From: Acidobacteriota bacterium
GTDB taxonomy: Bacteria > Acidobacteriota > Blastocatellia > UBA7656
DNA length: 64,000 nt
Reading direction: 5' to 3'
NCBI GenBank assembly: GCA_040754075.1
Contig: JBFMDH010000003.1
Span: 14,307 to 78,306, forward strand
In this document: in pieces, positions 37,706 through 47,716 of the stretch
Layout: each line of letters begins with the position of its first letter
Position numbering within the stretch: position 1 is the first letter of the stretch
Translations under genes and position numbers: made by a program
The notes under the pieces: model-generated
Seen by the model: the letters and a program-made list of their open reading frames with translations, nothing else
Told to the model about the DNA's origin: nothing
Database searches by the model: none

Positions 37706-38530
37706 ATGCCTGAACTTCCTGAAGTTGAAACCGTGCGCCGCTCTTTGGAGTTGTTGTTGCCTGCAAGAACCATTGTTGAGATTTCGGTGCGTGAGCCGCG
37801 ATTGCGCGTGACGGTTGACGAAGACCGATTGAATGAATTGATTTTGCAACGCCAGGTCGAACGCCTCACGCGGCGCGCAAAATATCTCATCGTGCATTTC
37901 ACCGAGGGCAGTTGTTTGATTTTGCATTTAGGGATGACCGGACAACTGCTTATCCTTTCGGCGCACGAGCCGCTCGATAAACATGACCATGTCATTTTAA
38001 CTCTCGATAATGGATTGCATCTGCGCTTTCGCGACCCGCGCCGATTCGGTTGTGTCATCGCCATTGAACAGAGCCAACTTGATGAACACGCGACGCTCAG
38101 ACAACTCGGCGTCGAGCCGCTTTTGGAAAATTTCACTCCTGAATATTTATTCCGCCGTTCGCGTAAATCGAAAAAGCCGGTGAAGAATTTCATTATGGAT
38201 CAGCAAATCGTTGTCGGAGTGGGCAACATTTACGCCAGCGAAGCGCTGTTTCTGGCGGGCATTCATCCATTGCGCGAGGCCGGACGCATCACGCTCAAGC
38301 GTTATGAAAAACTGCACGCGGCAATTATTCAAGTTTTACAGGAAGCCATCGCGCTTGGCGGCACGACGATAGATGATTTTCGCAACAGCGACGGAACGAG
38401 CGGTTACTTTCAACAAAAACTGCGCGTTTATGGGCGCAAAGGCGAACCTTGTCCCAGTTGTCAAACCCCGATTCGCTCGCAAGTGCTTGCCGGTCGTTCG
38501 ACCTTCTTTTGCCCTAAGTGTCAGCGGTGA
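37706..38530 (+). CDS. mutM: Formamidopyrimidine-DNA glycosylase
   Basis: N-terminal MPELPEVETVRR (catalytic Pro2/Glu3), H2TH domain, and C-terminal zinc finger CPSCQTPI...CPKCQ. Confidence 0.9.
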   Translation: MPELPEVETVRRSLELLLPARTIVEISVREPRLRVTVDEDRLNELILQRQVERLTRRAKYLIVHFTEGSCLILHLGMTGQLLILSAHEPLDKHDHVILTLDNGLHLRFRDPRRFGCVIAIEQSQLDEHATLRQLGVEPLLENFTPEYLFRRSRKSKKPVKNFIMDQQIVVGVGNIYASEALFLAGIHPLREAGRITLKRYEKLHAAIIQVLQEAIALGGTTIDDFRNSDGTSGYFQQKLRVYGRKGEPCPSCQTPIRSQVLAGRSTFFCPKCQR

Positions 38531-38810
38531 GTATTTCTATTTTCGCACCGTTGAAATGCGAATAAGGCTGCAAAATTCTGTTTGAAACATTCAGCCACCC
38601 TTGCTTGTTTCATAATGCTTTGTGGTTGCTCGGCATTAGACCGCAGAGATAGTAATGCCAGGATAAGTTATTGAGAGAAAAACGCTTCAAGCGAATCGCT
38701 TATCACTTGATAAAAACAATCTATTTGCCCGCTCAATAAAACAGTGTTATTCATTCAACGACCAAAACTTCCGGGCAGGCTGTGTCAATCCTTTCACAAA
38801 CGGTGAATGA

Positions 38811-40364
38811 ATGGCTGAGAGAATAAAAGTATTCGATACGACGCTACGTGATGGTGAACAATCGCCGGGTTGCAGTATGAATCTCGAAGAAAAGCTGCGT
38901 CTTGCACACCAACTCGACACCCTTGGCGTGGATGTTATCGAAGCCGGATTCCCAATTGCCTCAGACGATGATTTTGCGGCAGTTCGCGAAATTGCGCGAC
39001 AGGTTCGCCGTCCGATTATTGCAGCCCTGGCGCGCGCCACTCGCGAAGACATCGAACGCGCCTGGGAAGCTTTACAGGAAGCCGCCCGCCCACGCATTCA
39101 CACATTCCTTGCCACTTCCGATATTCATCTGACCGCTAAATTAAAAATCACCCGCGAAGAATGTCTGGCGCGCATTGCCGAATCGGTCGCCTTAGCCAAA
39201 AGTTTTACCGATGACGTCGAATTCTCAACCGAAGATGCAACCCGCACCGACCTCGACTTTTTAGTTGAAGCCGTCAGCGCCGCCGTCAAAGCCGGTGCCA
39301 CAACCGTGAATATCCCGGACACCGTTGGGTACACCATTCCACGCGAATACGCGCATATCATCAAGACGCTTCGCGAACGTGTCGAAGGCATCGAAAAAGT
39401 CACCATCTCTGTGCATTGTCATAATGATTTGGGAATGGCAGTTGCCAATTCGCTCGCGGCTATCGAAGCCGGAGCCAGACAAATCGAATGCACCATCAAT
39501 GGCATAGGTGAACGCGCCGGTAACGCTTCACTGGAAGAATTAGCGATGGCGCTCAATGTTCGCAAAGATTTGCTCGCCTATGAGACCGGCATTAACACGA
39601 CGGAAATTTATCGCAGCAGTCAGATGTTATCGAACATCACGGGTATTCCGGTGCAACCCAATAAAGCCATTGTCGGACGCAATGCTTTTGCGCACGAAGC
39701 CGGAATTCATCAACACGGGGTCATCGCCGATAAGTTGACTTATGAAATCATGAAGCCTGAAACCGTTGGCGTAAAACAAAGCGTCCTGGTGTTAGGCAAA
39801 CATTCCGGGCGTCACGCTTTGCAAAAACGTTATGAAGAGATGGGCTATGTGTTGACCCGAATTGAACTCGATAAAGCCTACAAACTCTTCACTATGCTTG
39901 CCGACCAGAAGAAAGATATTTACGACGAAGACCTGGTCGTCATTCTGCAAGATGGTCTGCGCGAAATTCCCGAAACCTTTAAACTGCGAAATGTTGAAGC
40001 GCTCGCCGGAACCACCAAAGATTCGTGGGCAACTGTGACCCTCGAACGCGATGAACAGGCGATGTCACGCAGCGCACACGCCGGAGGTCCGGTGGCTGCG
40101 GCTTACGCGGCAATTGATTTTCTTACGGGAACAAATCCCACACTGATTGATTACGAAGTGCGCTCAGTAACCGGCGGAGCCGATGCCGTGGGCGAAGTTT
40201 TTACGCACATTGAAATTGATGAAAAAACCTTCACGGGTCGCGCTGCTTCCACAGATGTTGTTGAAGCCAGCGCCCGCGCTTATTTGCATGCCATCAACAA
40301 AGCTCTGCACGCGCGCAGTTTGAATGCGCCTAAGAAAAAGAGCTTTGCAGGAGCAGCGGATTAA
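38811..40364 (+). CDS. leuA: 2-isopropylmalate synthase (or closely related citramalate synthase)
   Basis: [16 protein letters not shown] and [21 protein letters not shown] motifs of the HMGL-like DRE-TIM fold, with a C-terminal LeuA dimerisation/regulatory domain. 517 aa. Confidence 0.8.
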
Positions 40365-40369
40365 AAGAA

Positions 40370-40513
40370 ATGCAATACTCGGCAAATCGAAAACCGAATA
40401 GTTTTGCCAAAGCCGTCGTCAAAGAAACCGACGATATTCTTGCGCTTTCCGTCATTACTCTGCTTATTCCGGTAATTATTGTAGTCGTAGTACTGCTTAT
40501 TAAAAGCGGATGA
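40370..40513 (+). CDS. Branched-chain amino acid leader peptide (47 aa: MQYSANRKPNSFAKAVVKETDDILALSVITLLIPVIIVVVVLLIKSG)
   Basis: ATG 6 nt after the leuA stop. Twenty of the last 26 codons encode Ile/Leu/Val, including the run ATT ATT GTA GTC GTA GTA CTG CTT ATT. Followed by alternative hairpins and an intrinsic terminator ahead of ilvB. Confidence 0.7.
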   Translation: MQYSANRKPNSFAKAVVKETDDILALSVITLLIPVIIVVVVLLIKSG

Positions 40514-40582
40514 CGGTAACTTGCAAAAGAAAGCAAAAGCAAAAGCCGTCATCAAGAAAAAAAGATGACGGCTTTTGAATTT
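40449..40582 (+). promoter_or_regulatory. Four-segment transcription attenuator of the ilv operon
   Basis: Segment 1 CCGTCAT (40449-40455, inside the leader ORF). Segment 2 GATGACGG (40509-40516, overlapping the leader stop). Segment 3 GCCGTCATC (40544-40552). Segment 4 GATGACGGC (40563-40571) followed by TTTTGAATTTT. Pairings 1:2, 2:3 (antiterminator) and 3:4 (terminator) are mutually exclusive. Confidence 0.65.
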
Positions 40583-40631
40583 TACGGCGCAGCATCAACG
40601 AAATTGATTGCCATATCAAAAAGGAAATCGC

Positions 40632-42383
40632 ATGGGAGCCATAGCACGAGAACTCATTAAACGGGCAGCACAGCACGAACCCACGCCGCAAGTGATGAGC
40701 GGCGCACGCATCGTTTGTGAAGCGTTGATGCGCGAAGGCGTTGACACAATCTTCGGTTATCCGGGTGGGGTGGTGTTGCCGATTTACGATGAATTGCTTA
40801 ACTACAAAGGCAAAATCCGTCACATCCTGGTGCGTCACGAACAGGGCGCAATGCACATGGCTGAAGGTTACGCGAAAGCCACAGGCAAAGTCGGATGTGT
40901 GTTGGTCACCTCAGGTCCAGGCGCAACCAATACAGTCACCGGCATTGCCAATGCTTTTTTGGATTCAACGCCGCTGGTGGTCATCACCGGTCAAGTGCCG
41001 ACGAAACTCATCGGCAACGATGCCTTTCAGGAAGTCGATACCGTGGGCATCACGCGCGCCTGCACCAAGTACAACTATCTGGTAAGCGATGCGCGCGATT
41101 TGCCGCACATCATCAAAGAAGCCTTTTTCATTGCCCAAACCGGGCGTCCGGGTCCCGTGTTGATTGATATTCCCAAAGACGTTTGCACCCAAACCGCGCC
41201 CTTCGTTTATGCCGATAACATCAACGTTGCGGGCTATGCGCCCCACCTGTTTGGTGAATCGGAATCCATCAAACGCGCCGCGCAAAAAATCGCGTCTGCC
41301 GAAAGACCGATTCTCTACATCGGTGGCGGCGTCATTCACGCCAATGCCTTCGATGAAATCGTCGAACTTGCTGAGCGGCTTTCTTTGCCGGTCACGCCAA
41401 CTTTGATGGGACTTGGTGGATTTCCGTCGGGGCATCCGCTCAATTTGGGAATGCTTGGCATGCATGGAATGTACTGGGCAAATATGGCGGTTTCCGAAGC
41501 CGATTTGCTGATTGCCGTCGGCGCGCGATTTGATGACCGGGTGACCGGCGCGCTCAATAAATTCGCGCCCCATGCCGAAATCATTCACGTCGATATTGAC
41601 CCCGGTTCAATCAGCAAAAATGTTCGCGCCACCATAGGCATCGTCGGCGACGCGAAAACCGTGGCGCAACAATTGATTGATGCGCTCAGCGAAGCAGAAT
41701 GCGCGACGAGTCGCGAACGCCTCAACAGTTGGTGGCAACAGATAAACGAATGGAAAACTTATGCGCCGCTCACTTTTGATGATACGGATGAGGTGATTAT
41801 GCCGCAGCGGTTGATTCGCGAATTGCACCGTTTAACCCAGGGCGACGCGATTATCGCAACCGATGTCGGACAGCATCAGATGTGGCTTGCGCAATATTAT
41901 CCGTTCAATTCGCCGCGCCAGAATTTGACGTCGGGGGGACTCGGCACAATGGGTTATGGATTCCCTGCGGCGCTCGGCGCGCAACTGGCTTTTCCGAATC
42001 GTCAGGTGATTGCTTTTGTCGGCGACGGCGGATTTCAAATGACCGCGCAGGAACTGGCGACCGCTGTGAAGTGCCGCGCCAATGTCAAAGTCATTGTCAT
42101 GAACAACGCGACGTTGGGAATGGTGCGCCAACTGCAAGATTTGTTCTATGACGGTAATTGCACGAATGTTGATTTAAGCGGCAATCCCGATTTCGTCAAA
42201 CTCGCGGAAGCTTACGGGGCAACCGGACTGAGAGCCACACGCCCCGAAGAGTTGAGCGAAGTGTTAGAACGCGGCTTGAATACGCCCGGCGTGGTGGTGA
42301 TGGATATTGCGGTTGCCGATAACCTGAATGTCTATCCGATGGTTCCCGCAGGCGCAGGGCTGACGGAGATGATTTTGAATTGA
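40632..42383 (+). CDS. ilvB: Acetolactate synthase large (catalytic) subunit
   Basis: AGGAAA SD. TPP-enzyme motifs ([19 protein letters not shown]...N...) and 584-aa length. Confidence 0.9.
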
Positions 42384-42387
42384 AGAA

Positions 42388-42521
42388 GTCTGGAGTCTGG
42401 AGTCGAGAGTCTGGAGTCTCAAATTTGTAGGGGTGAGAGTAGCTTCAAAAATAGAGAGGCAAAATCAACGTTCAAATTTGAAACTGCGGACTCCAGACTC
42501 CAGACTCTCGACTCCAGACAG
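42388..42521. repeat. Inverted arrays of tandem heptamers (GTCTGGA x4 / GACTCCA x4) flanking a ~65-nt spacer in the ilvB-ilvN gap
   Basis: The left arm is gtctgga gtctgga gtcgaga gtctgga gtctc. The right arm is gactcca gactcca gactctc gactcca gacagtc, its approximate reverse complement. Inner direct repeats caaatttg x2. Confidence 0.7.
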
Positions 42522-42525
42522 TCTT

Positions 42526-43050
42526 ATGAAACATACAATTTCAGTAATTCTTGAAGACCGCTTCGGAGATTTGCAACGCATCGTTGGCATGTTCAGCGCC
42601 AAGTGTTTGCCGATTGAATCCCTGAGCGTTTCACCGACCATGAATGGCACGCTCTCTTCGGCAACTATCGTCACCAGTGGCGAAGCAAAAGCCATCGAAC
42701 AGATTGTCAAATTGCTCAATCGTCAGGTGCGCGTATTGAGCGCGGCGGATGTGACGAATCTCGATTGTATCGAGCGCGAAATGGCATTTGTGAAAGTCAA
42801 AGCGGAAAACGGCGAAGCGCGACAAAAGGCTTTGAATCTGGTGTCGCTTTTCCATGCCAAAATCGTAGATGCGACCAACGAAGGTTTCATTGTCGAAGTC
42901 ATTGGTGACAGCAATACGGTTCGCGGTCTGGTGCATTCGCTGCAACCGTTCGGCGTGCACGAGGTCGTGCGCACCGGAACCGTAGCCATCGAGCGATTGA
43001 ACGAAGCGGGTGAGCAAGCGGCTGCTAATTGCCAGGTCGCGGCAGATTGA
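42526..43050 (+). CDS. ilvN: Acetolactate synthase small (regulatory) subunit
   Basis: ACT domain MKHTISVILEDRFGDLQRIVGMFS and a C-terminal AHAS small-subunit domain. Confidence 0.85.
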   Translation: MKHTISVILEDRFGDLQRIVGMFSAKCLPIESLSVSPTMNGTLSSATIVTSGEAKAIEQIVKLLNRQVRVLSAADVTNLDCIEREMAFVKVKAENGEARQKALNLVSLFHAKIVDATNEGFIVEVIGDSNTVRGLVHSLQPFGVHEVVRTGTVAIERLNEAGEQAAANCQVAAD

Positions 43051-43160
43051 TTTTTGTTGAGCAAACGGTCTTTGACCGCGATGAGTATTACTCATTGAGC
43101 AAACGGTCTTTGACCGCAAATAAGAAGATTTGATGTCCGTTGAGTGAGCGGTCTAAAGAC
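43051..43160. repeat. Three tandem ~36-bp repeats, each carrying the palindrome (A/G)CGGTC-N3-GACCGC, in the ilvN-ilvC gap
   Basis: ttgagcaaacggtctttgaccgc x2 and ttgagtgagcggtctaaagaccgc, plus the palindrome ATGAGTATTACTCAT at about 43082. A related copy, ttgagcaagcggtc...gcggtcatagaccgc, lies at 36246-36301. Confidence 0.65.
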
Positions 43161-43208
43161 CGCGAGCGAAATTTAAACCAGGAAGATATTTTTAATTCAG
43201 AGGATTTT

Positions 43209-44225
43209 ATGAAAATTTTTTATGACAAAGATGCTGACCTTGACTATCTACGAGGTAAAAAAATCGCCATCATCGGGTATGGTTCACAAGGTCATGCGCA
43301 TGCGAATAATTTAAAAGATTCGGGTTGCGATGTAATTGTCGGACTCAAAGCCGGGAGCCTTTCGCGCGCCAAAGCCGAAGCCGCCGGTCTCACGGTTCAA
43401 GACACTGCCGAAGCTGCCTTCAACGCCGACATCATCATGATGCTGGTGCCCGATGAAGTCGCGCCGAAAATTTATGCGCAGGATATTGCGCCAAATCTGT
43501 TGCCCGGCAACTCCCTGGTGTTCGCGCATGGCTTTTCGATTCATTTCAAAAAAATCGTGCCGCCGGAAAACGTCAATGTTTTTATGGTTGCGCCCAAAGG
43601 TCCCGGTCATCTGGTGCGCCACGAATACACCGAAGGACGCGGTGTTCCGTGTTTGCTGGCAATTCATCAGGACGCCAGCGGCAACACCCAACAAACAGGA
43701 CTCGCTTATGCGTCGGCGATTGGCGGCGGTCGCGCGGCAATTTTGGAAACCACGTTTCGCGAAGAGACCGAGACCGACCTTTTCGGTGAACAAGCGGTCT
43801 TGTGCGGCGGTCTCGCCTCGCTCATTCAAGCCGGTTTCGATACCTTGGTTGAAGCGGGCTATTCACGCGAGATGGCTTATTTTGAATGCCTCCACGAAGT
43901 CAAACTCATCGTTGATTTAATTTATGAAGGCGGCATTTCCAACATGCGTTATTCGGTATCGAACACCGCCGAATATGGCGATCTATCGCGCGGCGGGCGC
44001 GTCATTAATGACGGCGTGCGGCAAGAGATGAAACAACTTTTAAAAGAAATTCAGTCGGGCGAATTCGCCGACGAATGGATGGCTGAAAATGAAGCCGGTA
44101 AACCGCGTTTCAAAGCTATGGAAGCCGCAGGACTGGCGCATCCGATTGAAGAGGTCGGCAGAGAGTTGCGCGGCATGATGCCCTGGCTTCAGCAAAATAA
44201 ATTGGTCAACAAAGCGAAAAATTAG
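43209..44225 (+). CDS. ilvC: Ketol-acid reductoisomerase
   Basis: NADP-binding motif [17 protein letters not shown], class-I KARI length (338 aa), and the C-terminal knotted domain. Confidence 0.9.
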
Positions 44226-44349
44226 CGAGAAGTGACGGGTGATGAAAGGGGCTGTTTCAAAGTGCTGAGAAGCAAATCGCATGGAAGACTCCTTAGAAAT
44301 TCGCCCGCTAGTCACTCGCCACTTGTCGCTAAATTAAAGAGAGGTAGTT

Positions 44350-44724
44350 ATGGGTTTTTACGATTGGGACAAAATGCGAGCCGAAGATATTTCGGAACTC
44401 TATAAACGGAAAATGGCGATTGGCGAAAATCTCACGGTCGCGCGCGTCGAAGTGCAACAGGGCGCAACCACCCAGACGCATTCACACGAGAGCGAAGAAG
44501 TCATCATGGTTTTAAAAGGCGCGTGGCGATTTTATCTGCCACACGGCGAAATCACCCTGCGCGCCAATCAAATGCTGTCGATTCCACCGGGCGTCGAACA
44601 TTCATCGGAAGTTCTGGAAGACACGGTTGCCATAGACATCTGCACACCGATGCGCTTTGATTGGATTACCGGCGAAGACCGTTTTTTGCATCAAGACCCG
44701 GATCAATTGCTCTGGGCAGTATAA
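44350..44724 (+). CDS. Cupin-2 domain protein inserted in the ilv operon
   Basis: Small beta-barrel cupin motifs (HSHESEEVIMVLKGAWRFYL, PPGVEHSS). Located between ilvC and ilvD. Confidence 0.55.
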   Translation: MGFYDWDKMRAEDISELYKRKMAIGENLTVARVEVQQGATTQTHSHESEEVIMVLKGAWRFYLPHGEITLRANQMLSIPPGVEHSSEVLEDTVAIDICTPMRFDWITGEDRFLHQDPDQLLWAV

Positions 44725-44725
44725 C

Positions 44726-44893
44726 TGGTGGTCGGTAGCCGGTCGTCGGCAGTCGGTTTTTAGCAATCAGTAGTTTGGTAAAACATTTGCTCTAGTTGTT
44801 GAGTTGAAATTCAATTACTAAACCAAATCCGTGCGAGCAACTGAATACGAAGAACCGATAACCGGCTACCGGCTACCGACTACTGACTACCAA
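44726..44893. repeat. Inverted arrays of tandem heptamers (GGTNGYC x4 / reverse complement x5) flanking a ~95-nt spacer in the cupin-ilvD gap
   Basis: Left arm: ggtggtc ggtagcc ggtcgtc ggcagtc ggt. Right arm: accgata accggct accggct accgact actgact acc. Confidence 0.65.
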
Positions 44894-44895
44894 CT

Positions 44896-46563
44896 ATGAG
44901 AAGTAATTTAATCAAACTCGGCGCAGAACGTGCACCGCATCGCAGCTTGCTCAAAGCTTGTGGTGTGACCGATGGCGATATGCCGAAACCGTTTATCGGC
45001 GTTTGCAATTCTTACATTGACATCATTCCCGGTCATCGCCATTTGCAGGAACTCGGCAAACTCGCAAAAGAAGCGGTGCGCGAAGCCGGTGGCATTCCAT
45101 TTGAATTCAATACCATCGGCGTTGATGATGGCATTGCGATGGGACACATCGGCATGAAGTACAGTTTGCCGTCGCGTGAAATCATCGCCGATTCGGTTGA
45201 AACGGTCATCGAAGCGCACCGGCTCGATGGCATGGTCTGCATTCCGAATTGCGACAAAATCGTGCCGGGAATGTTGATGGCGGCGATGCGCGTCAATGTG
45301 CCGGTGATTTTTGTAAGCGGCGGCGCGATGCGCGCGGGCAAGCTCTCAACCGGAAAAAGCGTCGATTTGATGCACGTCTTTGAAGGCGTCGGCGCAGTGC
45401 AAGCGGGAAAACTTTCTGCCGCAGAGCTTCAGGAAATCGAAGATGTCGCGTGTCCGACCTGCGGTTCATGTTCGGGAATGTTCACCGCCAATTCGATGAA
45501 CTGTTTGATGGAGGCGCTGGGGGTCGCGCTTCCCGGCAACGGTACGTTTTTAGCAGATTCAGTTGATCGCCGTGAACTGGTGAAACAAGCGGCAGCGCAG
45601 ATTATCGAACTGGTGAAAGCCGATTTCAAACCGAGCGATTACATCACGCTCGCGTCGTTTGATAATGCCTTTGCGCTCGATGTGGCGATGGGCGGTTCAA
45701 CCAACACCGTGTTGCACACGCTGGCGATTGCCCGTGAAGCGGGAATCGAATATCCGCTTGAACGTTTGAATGAAATCTCTCAGCGTGTGCCGACGATTTG
45801 CAAAGTCAGCCCGGCGCGTCCCGATGTGCACATCGAAGATGTTGAGAGAGTCGGCGGCATCAGCGCCATTTTGAAAGAACTCGCAAAACGCCAAGGGGCG
45901 CTGGAGTTAAATCAAAAGACCGTGACTATGCAAACGCTTGGCGAAAATATTCGCGAAGCCGCCGCGCCTGATGGCGATGTGATTCGCACCCTTGAAGAAC
46001 CTTTTTCGGAAACCGGCGCGCTGGCAACTTTATTCGGTAACCTCGCGCCCGAAGGCGCAGTCATCAAACGCGCCGCCGCCGATCTGGATTATTTTACCGG
46101 CACGGCGATGGTTTTCGATTCGATGGAAGAAGCCTGTTCTGCTATTTTAAGTGGACTCGTAAAAAAAGGTTCCGTGGTGGTGATTCGTTACGAAGGACCA
46201 CGCGGCGGTCCCGGTATGCAGGAGATGCTTGCGCCGACGGCAAACATCGTTGGCATGGGACTCGGGCGCGACGTGGCGCTGATCACCGATGGGCGGTTTT
46301 CGGGCGCGACCCGCGGCATCTGCATCGGGCATGTTTCACCGGAAGCCGCAGCCGGCGGGACGATTGCCGCGCTTAAAGACGGTGATGTGATTACCATCGA
46401 TTTGAAGAACAATCGTCTGGAAGTTGATTTGGATGCAAGCGAAATCGCCGCGCGCCTTGCCGCCTTGCCGCCATTTCAAACGCGCGTCAAGAGTTCGTAT
46501 TTGCGGCGCTATGCATCGCTTGTGACATCGGCGAACACCGGAGCGGTTCTCAGAAAAGTTTGA
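44896..46563 (+). CDS. ilvD: Dihydroxy-acid dehydratase
   Basis: ILVD/EDD family motifs ([36 protein letters not shown]). 555 aa. Confidence 0.9.
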
Positions 46564-46572
46564 AGAGTGCAG

Positions 46573-46653
46573 GGGTGAAAAGGTGAAGAGGTGAATGCGA
46601 AATTTAAATCGCTTTAAGCTCTGAATCCTGAGTCCTGAATCCTGAATCCTGAC
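46573..46653 (+). repeat. Tandem short repeats in the ilvD-leuB gap (GGTGAAR-A x3; CTGARTC heptamer x5)
   Basis: ggtgaaaa ggtgaaga ggtgaatg, then ctgaatc ctgagtc ctgaatc ctgaatc ctgact, immediately before the leuB ATG. Confidence 0.65.
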
Positions 46654-46654
46654 T

Positions 46655-47716
46655 ATGAAACTGGATATAGCCACATTACCGGGTGATGGAATCGGCAGAG
46701 AAGTCGTTGCCGAGGGCGTGAAGGTGGTTTGCGCCATTGCCCAGCGGTTCAATCACGAAGTCGATATTCGTGAGTATGCCATCGGTGGCTCGGCGCTTGA
46801 TGAATTTGATTCACCGTTTCCCGAAGCGACTGCAAAGGGTTGTCTGGCGAGCAAAGCCGTTTTATTAGGTGCGGTCGGTGGTCCAAAGTATGATGCGAAT
46901 CCGCGAGGCAAAAAACCCGAAGACGGACTTTTGGCGCTCAGAAAAACTTTGAAGGCGTATGCCAATCTGCGCCCGATTGTGGTTTACCAGGAGTTAATTG
47001 AGGCTTCGCCGCTGCGACCTGATATTGTCGAAGGTTGCGATATGTTGATCGTGCGCGAACTGCTCGGCGGATTGTATTTTGGCGAGCCGCGCGGCATCAA
47101 AGAAGACCAGGCGTTTAACACGATGGCTTATTCGATTCCTGAAATCGAACGCATCGCCCACGTGGCGTTCAAAGCCGCTGAAAAACGACGGGGCTTAGTG
47201 GCATCGGTTGATAAAGCGAATGTTTTGGAAACCTCGCAACTCTGGCGCGAAACCGTGAGCCGCGTGGCGCAAGCTTATCCAACCGTCAAACTCGAACACA
47301 TCTTGGTTGATAATTGCGCCATGCAAATTGTTCGCGACCCGCGCCGCTTTGATGTGATTTTAACCGAAAATATGTTCGGGGATATTTTGTCAGATGAGGC
47401 AGCCGTGATTGCCGGTTCCATCGGTATGCTGGCATCTGCAAGCCTTGGCGGCGAGGTGGGACTGTATGAACCGGTTCATGGTTCTGCGCCTGATATTGCA
47501 GGTCAAGGCAAAGCCAACCCGCTTGGCACTATTGCATCGGTTGCGATGATGTTGCGTTATTCATTCGACCTTGAAGAAGAGGCGCGTGCCGTTGAAAGCG
47601 CCATCAAAACCGCTCTGGCAAACGGTCTGCGCACGGCAGATTTAGTCACTGGAAGCTCAGCGGTTCCGACAGCTGTAATGGGCGATGCCATAAAATCGCT
47701 GCTCCTTAGTATTTAG
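46655..47716 (+). CDS. leuB: 3-isopropylmalate dehydrogenase
   Basis: Isocitrate/isopropylmalate dehydrogenase motifs ([32 protein letters not shown]). Confidence 0.9.

Follow-up and report, generated by a model that had tools for sequence, protein, structure and literature searches.

In Escherichia coli, the leaders of ilvGMEDA (ilvL) and ilvBN (ivbL) are the classical multivalent branched-chain attenuators, with a leader peptide of 32 amino acids (aa). We analyzed a stretch of 64,000 nucleotides (nt) from contig JBFMDH010000003.1 (hereafter the window, meaning this whole stretch) of an uncultured Acidobacteriota bacterium known as a metagenome-assembled genome (MAG). Between leuA and ilvB of this window lies an element that, judged from its sequence, is very probably a ribosome-mediated leader-peptide attenuator tying expression of ilvBNC-cupin-ilvD-leuB to the supply of charged Ile-, Leu- and Val-tRNA. 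An attenuator of this kind ahead of these genes had been claimed in an earlier note on this DNA, and the claim is supported by the presence of the element in ten of ten orthologous ilvB loci as well as by covariation among three of its RNA segments (segments 2, 3 and 4). Like ilvL and ivbL, the element combines a short upstream open reading frame (uORF) rich in Ile, Leu and Val (ILV) codons with four RNA segments, the first of them only probable, capable of the mutually exclusive pairings 1:2, 2:3 and 3:4, an intrinsic terminator before the first structural gene, and a stop codon placed such that a ribosome completing the leader would block the antiterminator. It differs from the E. coli leaders in that no sequence similarity exists (no Pfam, NCBIfam or Rfam match), in the length of the peptide (47 aa in the window and about 36-65 aa among relatives), in a stop codon that is embedded in segment 2 itself, and in its location 6 nt after leuA, which is probably internal to an operon and not at the 5' end of a transcript.

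The earlier note had further held that attenuation of this type is not generally described outside Proteobacteria, which proved too narrow, as it has been described in Actinobacteria and Firmicutes and proposed for Leptospira and other phyla. ILV-rich leader peptides with terminators precede ilvB in the actinobacterial genera Corynebacterium, Mycobacterium and Streptomyces (PMC1262725, PMC10272879, PMC11857589). Staphylococcus aureus has an attenuator peptide rich in leucine (PMC5794164), and leader-peptide attenuation has also been discussed for Listeria (PMC5864092). Leptospira and "various bacterial phyla" have been put forward as further carriers of uORF-based attenuators (PMC10272879, section 14), and this form of attenuation is regarded as common for ilvB (PMC10272879). 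The window element resembles the ilvBNC leader of Corynebacterium (ilvB-II motif, three-hairpin model) in its uORF rich in branched-chain amino acid (BCAA) codons, its terminator and its alternative hairpins, and the ilvB-II motif was likewise found by comparative genomics and is thought to act through translation of the uORF (PMC10272879, PMC11857589). The two belong to different phyla and are unrelated in sequence, and the Corynebacterium leader has reporter and mutational support, whereas the window element is known from sequence alone. Similarities also extend to the ilvB-OMG and Leptospira ilvB motifs, which are located before ilvB, have an in-frame start and stop and encode peptides that are rich in BCAA (and in Thr) and vary in both length and sequence (PMC10272879). 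The window element appears to form a separate lineage-specific family and has no Rfam match on the + strand of 40365-40632, even at E <= 10. The ilvB leaders of Mycobacterium and Streptomyces share with it the runs of Ile, Val and Leu codons beside a terminator with poly-U (PMC1262725), but their ILV codons overlap the terminator hairpin. In the window these codons are located upstream, and the overlap with the switch is confined to the stop codon.

For Acidobacteria, no description of such an attenuator turned up in full-text searches, and in a survey from 2010 almost none of the attenuators predicted for Acidobacteriota had an assigned function (PMC2965389). Among the matches listed in a cross-phylum survey of 76 ilvB loci (IlvB identity of 60% or less, many phyla), 11 had an ILV-rich uORF before ilvB on the sense strand, compared to 0/76 on the antisense strand; the positive loci included other Acidobacteriota. 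Such uORFs were located 80-220 nt before ilvB in L019, L021, L025, L026, L028, L035, L039 (Desulfobacterota), L042 (Rhodothermus), L043 (Solibacteraceae) and L063 (Arcobacter), and those of the Desulfobacterota share the peptide pattern ..NLISLIL.LV...GLIMA. The window element is a lineage-specific case of a well-known type of regulator, mechanistically ordinary, and confirms the textbook model; modestly new are the phylum, the probable operon-internal place right after leuA and the apparent reuse of the switch core at ilvB and ilvD.

The leader ORF (40370-40513, + strand) translates to MQYSANRKPNSFAKAVVKETDDILALSVITLLIPVIIVVVVLLIKSG, comprising 47 codons followed by UGA. Its ATG is located 6 nt past the stop of leuA, which ends at 40364, and both its length and its position had been given correctly in the earlier note. 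ILV codons occupy 18 of the 22 positions between codons 23 and 44 (regulatory codon run, 40436-40501, +; 6 Ile, 6 Leu and 6 Val) and 18 of the last 26 sense codons. The previously claimed 20 of 26 corresponds to the ILV content of the complete 47-codon ORF (6 Ile, 6 Leu and 8 Val), which includes two more Val at codons 16-17. The run IIVVVVLLI noted at that time was found within VIIVVVVLLI, ten ILV codons in a row. The use of Ile, Leu and Val is balanced, and control would therefore be multivalent, as in E. coli ilvGMEDA. For a comparison with chance, the whole window was divided in all six frames into stop-to-stop segments, and among the 1752 that reached 22 aa or more the leader ORF was the single ILV outlier (18/22 compared to 13 for the next best) and also contained the longest ILV run (10 compared to 7). 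This result bears directly on the explanation that the ORF is spurious, lying by chance in an AT-rich intergenic spacer beside an ordinary leuA terminator. Short ORFs are common in this region, with 165 of at least 30 aa in 14 kb, and nothing more speaks for such a coincidence, which is contradicted by the outlier status of the leader, by its retention in all orthologues, including those without leuA upstream, and by the covariation supporting the structure. A chance ORF is effectively refuted by the orthologue conservation together with the ILV outlier status, and we give it next to no credence.

Half of the leader Val codons (4/8) are the rare GTA, compared to 7% of the Val codons in ten neighbouring genes, and this usage could either heighten sensitivity or reflect RNA constraints. 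A GTA-rich stretch of the leader spans 40472-40492, and GTA GTA GTA runs recur in the leaders of three related loci (L081-L083).

All four RNA segments proposed in the earlier note were found where it had placed them, with the leader UGA (40511-40513) inside segment 2. Segment 1, the putative 5' arm of the anti-antiterminator (40449-40464, +), consists of CCGTCAT (40449-40455) plus CTGCTT; its CCGTCA(T) and CTGCTT are complementary to AAGCGG-ATGACGG of segment 2 (40504-40517, +; AAGCGGATGACGGT), the core of which is GATGACGG at 40509-40516. Between segments 2 and 3, a small conserved hairpin (TTGC...GCAA, 40521-40542, +) folds and extends the antiterminator helix; its four pairs are invariant in 5 sequences (4/4), which is neutral as to structure. 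Segment 3 (40540-40553, +; CAAAAGCCGTCATC, core GCCGTCATC at 40545-40553) serves the antiterminator as its 3' arm (40545-40553) and the terminator as its 5' arm. Segment 4 (GATGACGGCTTTTG), the 3' arm of the terminator, with GATGACGGC at 40564-40572, and the subsequent U-tract TTTTGAATTTT occupy 40564-40583 (+) and complete the intrinsic terminator. Folded separately, the alternative pairings reached -17.5 kcal/mol for the 1:2 region, -16.8 kcal/mol for 2:3 with the TTGC/GCAA extension and -22.5 kcal/mol for 3:4, the latter with a 14-bp stem and a 10-nt loop ahead of the U-tract. The pairings 2:3 and 3:4 are mutually exclusive, in agreement with what had been claimed. The minimum-energy fold of 40365-40632 is composed of 1:2 plus 3:4, and this region of 268 nt is more stable than 200 of 200 dinucleotide shuffles (z = -3.4). 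As in classical attenuators, thermodynamics favors the terminator state, which is the optimum, and the antiterminator could win only kinetically.

Scans with Rfam 15 returned no match at gathering across the whole window, no + strand match in 40365-40632 even at E <= 10, and no riboswitch or T-box at E <= 10. The matches obtained at E <= 10 between 38 and 48 kb (mir-240, small nucleolar RNAs, fragments of long non-coding RNAs and a minus-strand plastid 3' untranslated region over the terminator) were treated as chance because they are far below gathering and biologically implausible.

According to the proposed mechanism, transcription would start at a conserved promoter-like element 5' of leuA and proceed through leuA, and a ribosome would enter the leader at its start codon, 6 nt beyond the end of leuA, either by fresh initiation or by re-initiation. 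When amino acids are ample, the ribosome would reach the UGA and mask segment 2, upon which the 3:4 hairpin would form and the polymerase would stop at approximately 40575-40585. When any of Ile, Leu or Val is scarce, the ribosome would be expected to stall in the ILV run, from codon 23 to about codon 40, where it would cover segment 1 or part it from segment 2. With the ribosome stalled in this position, segment 2 would pair with the newly made segment 3, no terminator would form, and transcription would continue into ilvB. In a leader that is not translated, 1:2 would form, followed by termination.

A search for ILV-rich uORFs before ilvB in relatives had been named as a check in the earlier note, and uORF, antiterminator and terminator are carried by all of the orthologous loci (10/10) that we chose solely by IlvB similarity (70-87% identity) via a protein search and then the encoding contigs. 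Each has an ILV-rich uORF, a stop within the segment 2 sequence GCGG(A/G)TGAYGG, complementary segments 3 and 4, and a T-run. The set with 77-87% IlvB identity comprises four distinct loci (L081, L082, L083 and L085, with L084 duplicating L083), which share the order leuA, gap, ilvB-ilvN-ilvC-cupin-ilvD and in which the uORF begins 5-24 nt past leuA. The peptides encoded in L081-L085 exhibit an ILV run and then end in ...LLIKSG, ...LLIRSG or ...LIIKSG; their stop is spanned by AGCGGATGAC(G/A)G, which is followed by GCCGTCATC ... GATGACGGC and a T-run. In the set with 70-74% identity (five loci, L086, L087, L089, L090 and L091), ilvB comes first, and leuA follows downstream or is missing. Their ILV-rich uORFs end in ...SG or ...GG with the stop in GCGG(A/G)TGATGG, and GGCCATCATCC ... 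GGATGATGGCC plus a T-run come after the uORF. Judged from this distribution, the element belongs to ilvB and is not a leuA terminator, because it is present in five loci without an upstream leuA. The order ilvB-ilvN-ilvC-cupin was kept in all relatives examined. By eye, no leader was apparent in four Pyrinomonadaceae/Blastocatellia loci with IlvB identities of 57-60% (L001, L004, L015 and L024), which may carry a paralogue or lack the element.

Closer examination of the peptides revealed that the N-terminal half of the uORF is not conserved and that only the ILV run and the parts overlapping the RNA segments are kept in all leaders. The C-terminal ...SG or ...GG before the stop is found because it is dictated by GCGGATGA of segment 2. 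These observations are relevant to the explanation that the ORF encodes a small single-pass membrane protein, with a charged N-terminus and a hydrophobic helix of 22 residues, and that the hairpin is the terminator of this gene or of leuA. The sequence does resemble a transmembrane helix, gene callers predict the uORF as a protein in some relatives, and NCBIfam, which returned no leader-peptide family, gave sub-threshold matches solely to membrane-spanning parts of sugar transferases (E 0.015-0.11). However, Pfam contained no family for the leader peptide at E <= 1, and the N-terminal half varies in sequence as well as in length, while conservation tracks the RNA pairing, including wobble positions and the three-way covariation of segments 2, 3 and 4. 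Furthermore, a constitutive terminator before an essential biosynthetic operon in 10/10 loci would make no sense without an antiterminator, and the element accompanies ilvB with or without leuA upstream. We consider a membrane protein very improbable, and the attenuator remains by far the preferred explanation for this conservation.

Covariation was assessed in an alignment of 15 ilvB-type sequences, ten of them chosen by IlvB and five derived from a pattern search that fixes much of segments 2-4. The GCGG.TGA core of segment 2 was invariant in 15/15 sequences. The UGA was located inside segment 2 in 15/15 ilvB-type and 52/52 ilvD-type sequences (described below), its register being partly fixed by the pattern for the pattern-derived sequences. 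For the terminator, 89% of cells in the 15 sequences were paired, compared to 22-54% with the partner slid, and for the antiterminator the corresponding values were 88% and 19-52%. Compensatory changes were observed at four terminator pairs, namely 71:96 and three more. At pair 71:96, 9 sequences have AU and 6 have GC; at the antiterminator pair 34:71, 9 have UA and 6 have CG; and both were broken in 0/15. Column 71, which belongs to segment 3, thus is A in 9 and G in 6 sequences, and columns 34 (segment 2) and 96 (segment 4) match it as U or C with no exception. Covariation of a single strand with each of two alternative partners is what marks a switch.

The pairing of segments 1 and 2 was addressed in the clade of the window. 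RNAalifold applied to five sequences of this clade predicted 1:2 (CCGTCA:UGACGG plus CUGCUU:AAGCGG), the TTGC/GCAA hairpin and 3:4. CCGTCA is present in the same frame in all five leaders with differing encoded tripeptides (SVI, PVI, PVI, AVN and AVT); the frame is kept while the residues change, and selection on the RNA is therefore indicated. These patterns suggest that segment 1 is probably real in the window clade, and its presence in the wider family appears uncertain. Segment 1 is the weakest part of the element, and the geometry with the stop inside segment 2 would let a three-segment version work.

Several findings weigh against an attenuator that reads ILV codons. According to work cited in PMC1262725, the similar-looking ilvB leader of Streptomyces coelicolor was unaffected by mutation of its candidate regulatory codons and exhibited no classical attenuation, and it is mainly because this look-alike failed the codon-mutation test that we do not take the mechanism as proven. 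The leader ATG lacks a good Shine-Dalgarno sequence at a distance of 5-10 nt, the closest AGGAG lying 16 nt away, and a promoter scan detected no sigma-70-like site on the + strand of 39125-43283, including the region just upstream of the leader. The terminator loop of 10 nt is above the typical size. Stalling at the last 3-4 ILV codons would already place the ribosome over segment 2, and for this reason not all 18 ILV codons would act as read-through signals. The covariation derives from a small number of independent events (in essence a single split between clades, plus L097), the shuffle control ignores relatedness, and five of the 15 aligned sequences stem from the pattern search that fixes much of segments 2-4. 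Tested against codon shuffles one sequence at a time, the 1:2 duplex gave p values of 0.02-0.19 in the window clade and of 0.04-0.85 in more distant relatives, several of which were like chance.

Some of these points would be accommodated if the switch were real and set by translation rate, by Rho or guanosine tetraphosphate (ppGpp), or by binding of a protein or small molecule to the RNA, with the uORF serving as a generic translated spacer. In addition to the S. coelicolor result and the statistically weak 1:2 pairing in distant relatives, the conserved palindromic, operator-like motif described below hints at a protein-based layer. Such a switch leaves unexplained that every orthologue retains ILV richness as the sole constant feature of a peptide that otherwise drifts and that the same enrichment is found before ilvB in unrelated phyla. 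Moreover, the scan for riboswitches and T-boxes was negative as stated above, and the stop lies inside segment 2 in the loci checked, as a sensor of ribosome position needs. We regard sensing of something other than ILV codons as unlikely, and attenuation by ribosome stalling at these codons as strongly favored.

The position of the element relative to leuA was considered together with a conserved motif, a promoter/operator-like element (38698-38755, +) located approximately 58 nt before the leuA ATG. It consists of the palindrome TTATCA-CT-TGATAA (38700-38713), ATCTATTTGCC (38719-38729), 17 nt, and TTATTC (38747-38752) preceded by GTG. The consensus is GCTTATCAnnTGATAA-aaAc-TATCTATTTGC-N17-18-GTGTTATTC, that is, the perfect palindrome TTATCAnnTGATAA (TTATCA-NN-TGATAA), then ATCTATTTGC, 17-18 nt and GTGTTATTC. 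In the window and in L081-L085 the motif is upstream of leuA (L081:~856-915), and in L086 (~2661-2715), L089 (~2496-2550) and L114, as well as by eye in L087, it is directly upstream of the ilvB leader. This arrangement suggests that the motif is probably the operon promoter with an operator-like palindrome and marks the start region of a leuA-leader-ilv transcript; the palindrome itself suggests a protein-based layer of control. The negative promoter scan reported above gives no support to an internal promoter serving the leader, and inspection of the region upstream of leuA (38531-38810) revealed no second leader or Leu-rich uORF.

Since relatives without leuA at that place have the motif directly before the leader, whereas the window has it before leuA, the attenuator is probably operon-internal here, and the comparison suggests that a rearrangement put leuA between promoter and leader in the lineage of the window. 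Re-initiation at the leader by ribosomes ending at the leuA stop appears plausible because of the lack of a good Shine-Dalgarno sequence at the leader ATG. Since leuA is upstream of the attenuator it would not be subject to it; leuA would be present in every transcript, and ilvBNC-cupin-ilvD-leuB only after read-through. The escape of leuA from this control that had been claimed in the earlier note fits the conserved promoter-like motif upstream of leuA, and the escape itself we infer.

A related switch was observed upstream of ilvD. In metagenome contigs, at least 120 stretches matched the pattern GCGGATGAYGG-N15-45-CRTCATC-N5-25-GATGAYGG, of which we examined 81 matches in 80 listed loci (L092-L171), 75 of them with a classifiable downstream ORF. 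Among these 75 of the matches listed, 53 were just upstream of ilvD, 4 were upstream of ilvB and 18 were within unrelated genes. The ilvD-type examples among the matches listed include 52 unique sequences from soil metagenome contigs (e.g. L095:3081-3148 and L094:5760-5827). Their uORF has approximately 39 codons, is rich in Ile, Val, Thr and Gly (e.g. MTSIAITNTRGGQAVIESGRVPVVIVGIGFVLVGGRTGG) and ends in GG or SG with the stop inside GCGGATGATGGCG, and a terminator is present. The pattern did not constrain three Y/R/Y positions, and these were U/A/U in 50 of the 52 unique ilvD-type sequences, with the other two being G-U compatible. Among the ilv-linked matches listed, 54/56 were Watson-Crick-consistent at these positions and the other 2 were G-U, whereas the matches within unrelated genes exhibited all combinations. 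The ilvD-type segment 1, CGCCATCA, is located about 105 nt upstream and outside the search pattern; a perfect complement of at least 7 nt was found in 27/52 sequences compared to 3.5% of shuffles. A possible extra upstream arm, CATGGCGA, was also seen in the ilvD set.

One of the linked IlvD proteins is 88-93% identical to MAG proteins of Candidatus Acidoferrum and Candidatus Angelobacter, the latter being classified in Acidobacteriota, Terriglobia. An nhmmer profile built from the ten IlvB-chosen sequences recovered ilvD-type elements at E values of 1e-9 to 1e-4, which is not independent evidence of homology because the ilvD loci were found with a pattern from the same core; the ilvB and ilvD elements may share ancestry or may have converged. 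As a tentative and rather doubtful extension, a single modular switch, consisting of segment 2 (GGATGAYGG with the leader stop) and segments 3 and 4, may have been duplicated or moved, serving ilvB in Blastocatellia-like lineages and ilvD in Terriglobia. Under this extension, leuA would have been put between promoter and leader in the window, re-initiation would take place 6 nt past the leuA stop, and the lead ribosome would be supplied by leuA translation and not by pause-and-load.

With this element, Acidobacteriota, which are abundant in soil and mostly uncultured, gain a specific and well-conserved cis-regulatory element of amino-acid biosynthesis. Annotation ignores the uORF or calls it a hypothetical protein because the element is absent from Rfam, Pfam and NCBIfam. 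The family could enter RNA databases and help to set operon boundaries in MAGs, and its apparent reuse at ilvB and ilvD together with its probable operon-internal place offers modest material on the movement and evolution of attenuators.

The surrounding genes form a branched-chain amino acid cluster, all on the + strand, as identified by NCBIfam scans and, for the cupin, by a Pfam scan. The cluster region includes fpg (37706-38530), leuA (2-isopropylmalate synthase, 38811-40364; NF002086, E 4.9e-230), the leader ORF and ilvB (acetolactate synthase large subunit and first regulated gene, 40632-42383; TIGR00118, E 7e-248). The part of the operon 3' of the attenuator continues after ilvB from 42433 to 47716 with ilvN (42433-43050), ilvC (43140-44225), a cupin_2 gene (44350-44724, 124-aa product; Pfam E 8e-11, without NCBIfam match), ilvD (44896-46563) and leuB (46655-47716). 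In a protein search, the IlvB of the window was 100% identical to P0001 (562 aa), an NCBI MAG protein labelled Acidobacteriota bacterium, and the next-closest relatives were labelled Acidobacteria or Blastocatellia. The start of ilvB is ambiguous between the ATG at 40632 (583 aa) and Met22 at 40695 (562 aa), the latter being used in the NCBI call of the identical MAG protein. An AAGGAA precedes the ATG at 40632 by 6 nt, and 583 aa is the length of most relatives.

The cupin_2 gene was located immediately 3' of ilvC in every related ilv operon examined (L081-L091), regardless of the next gene, and this conserved position directly after ilvC therefore suggests an unrecognised role of its product tied to branched-chain amino acid synthesis. 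The intergenic region between the cupin gene and ilvD contains inverted repeats of 44 nt (44728-44771 and 44840-44883) that are 77% complementary and consist of short GGTAGCC/GGTCGTC-like units around an AT-rich spacer of 68 nt. These repeats may form a long mRNA hairpin or represent a repeat element.

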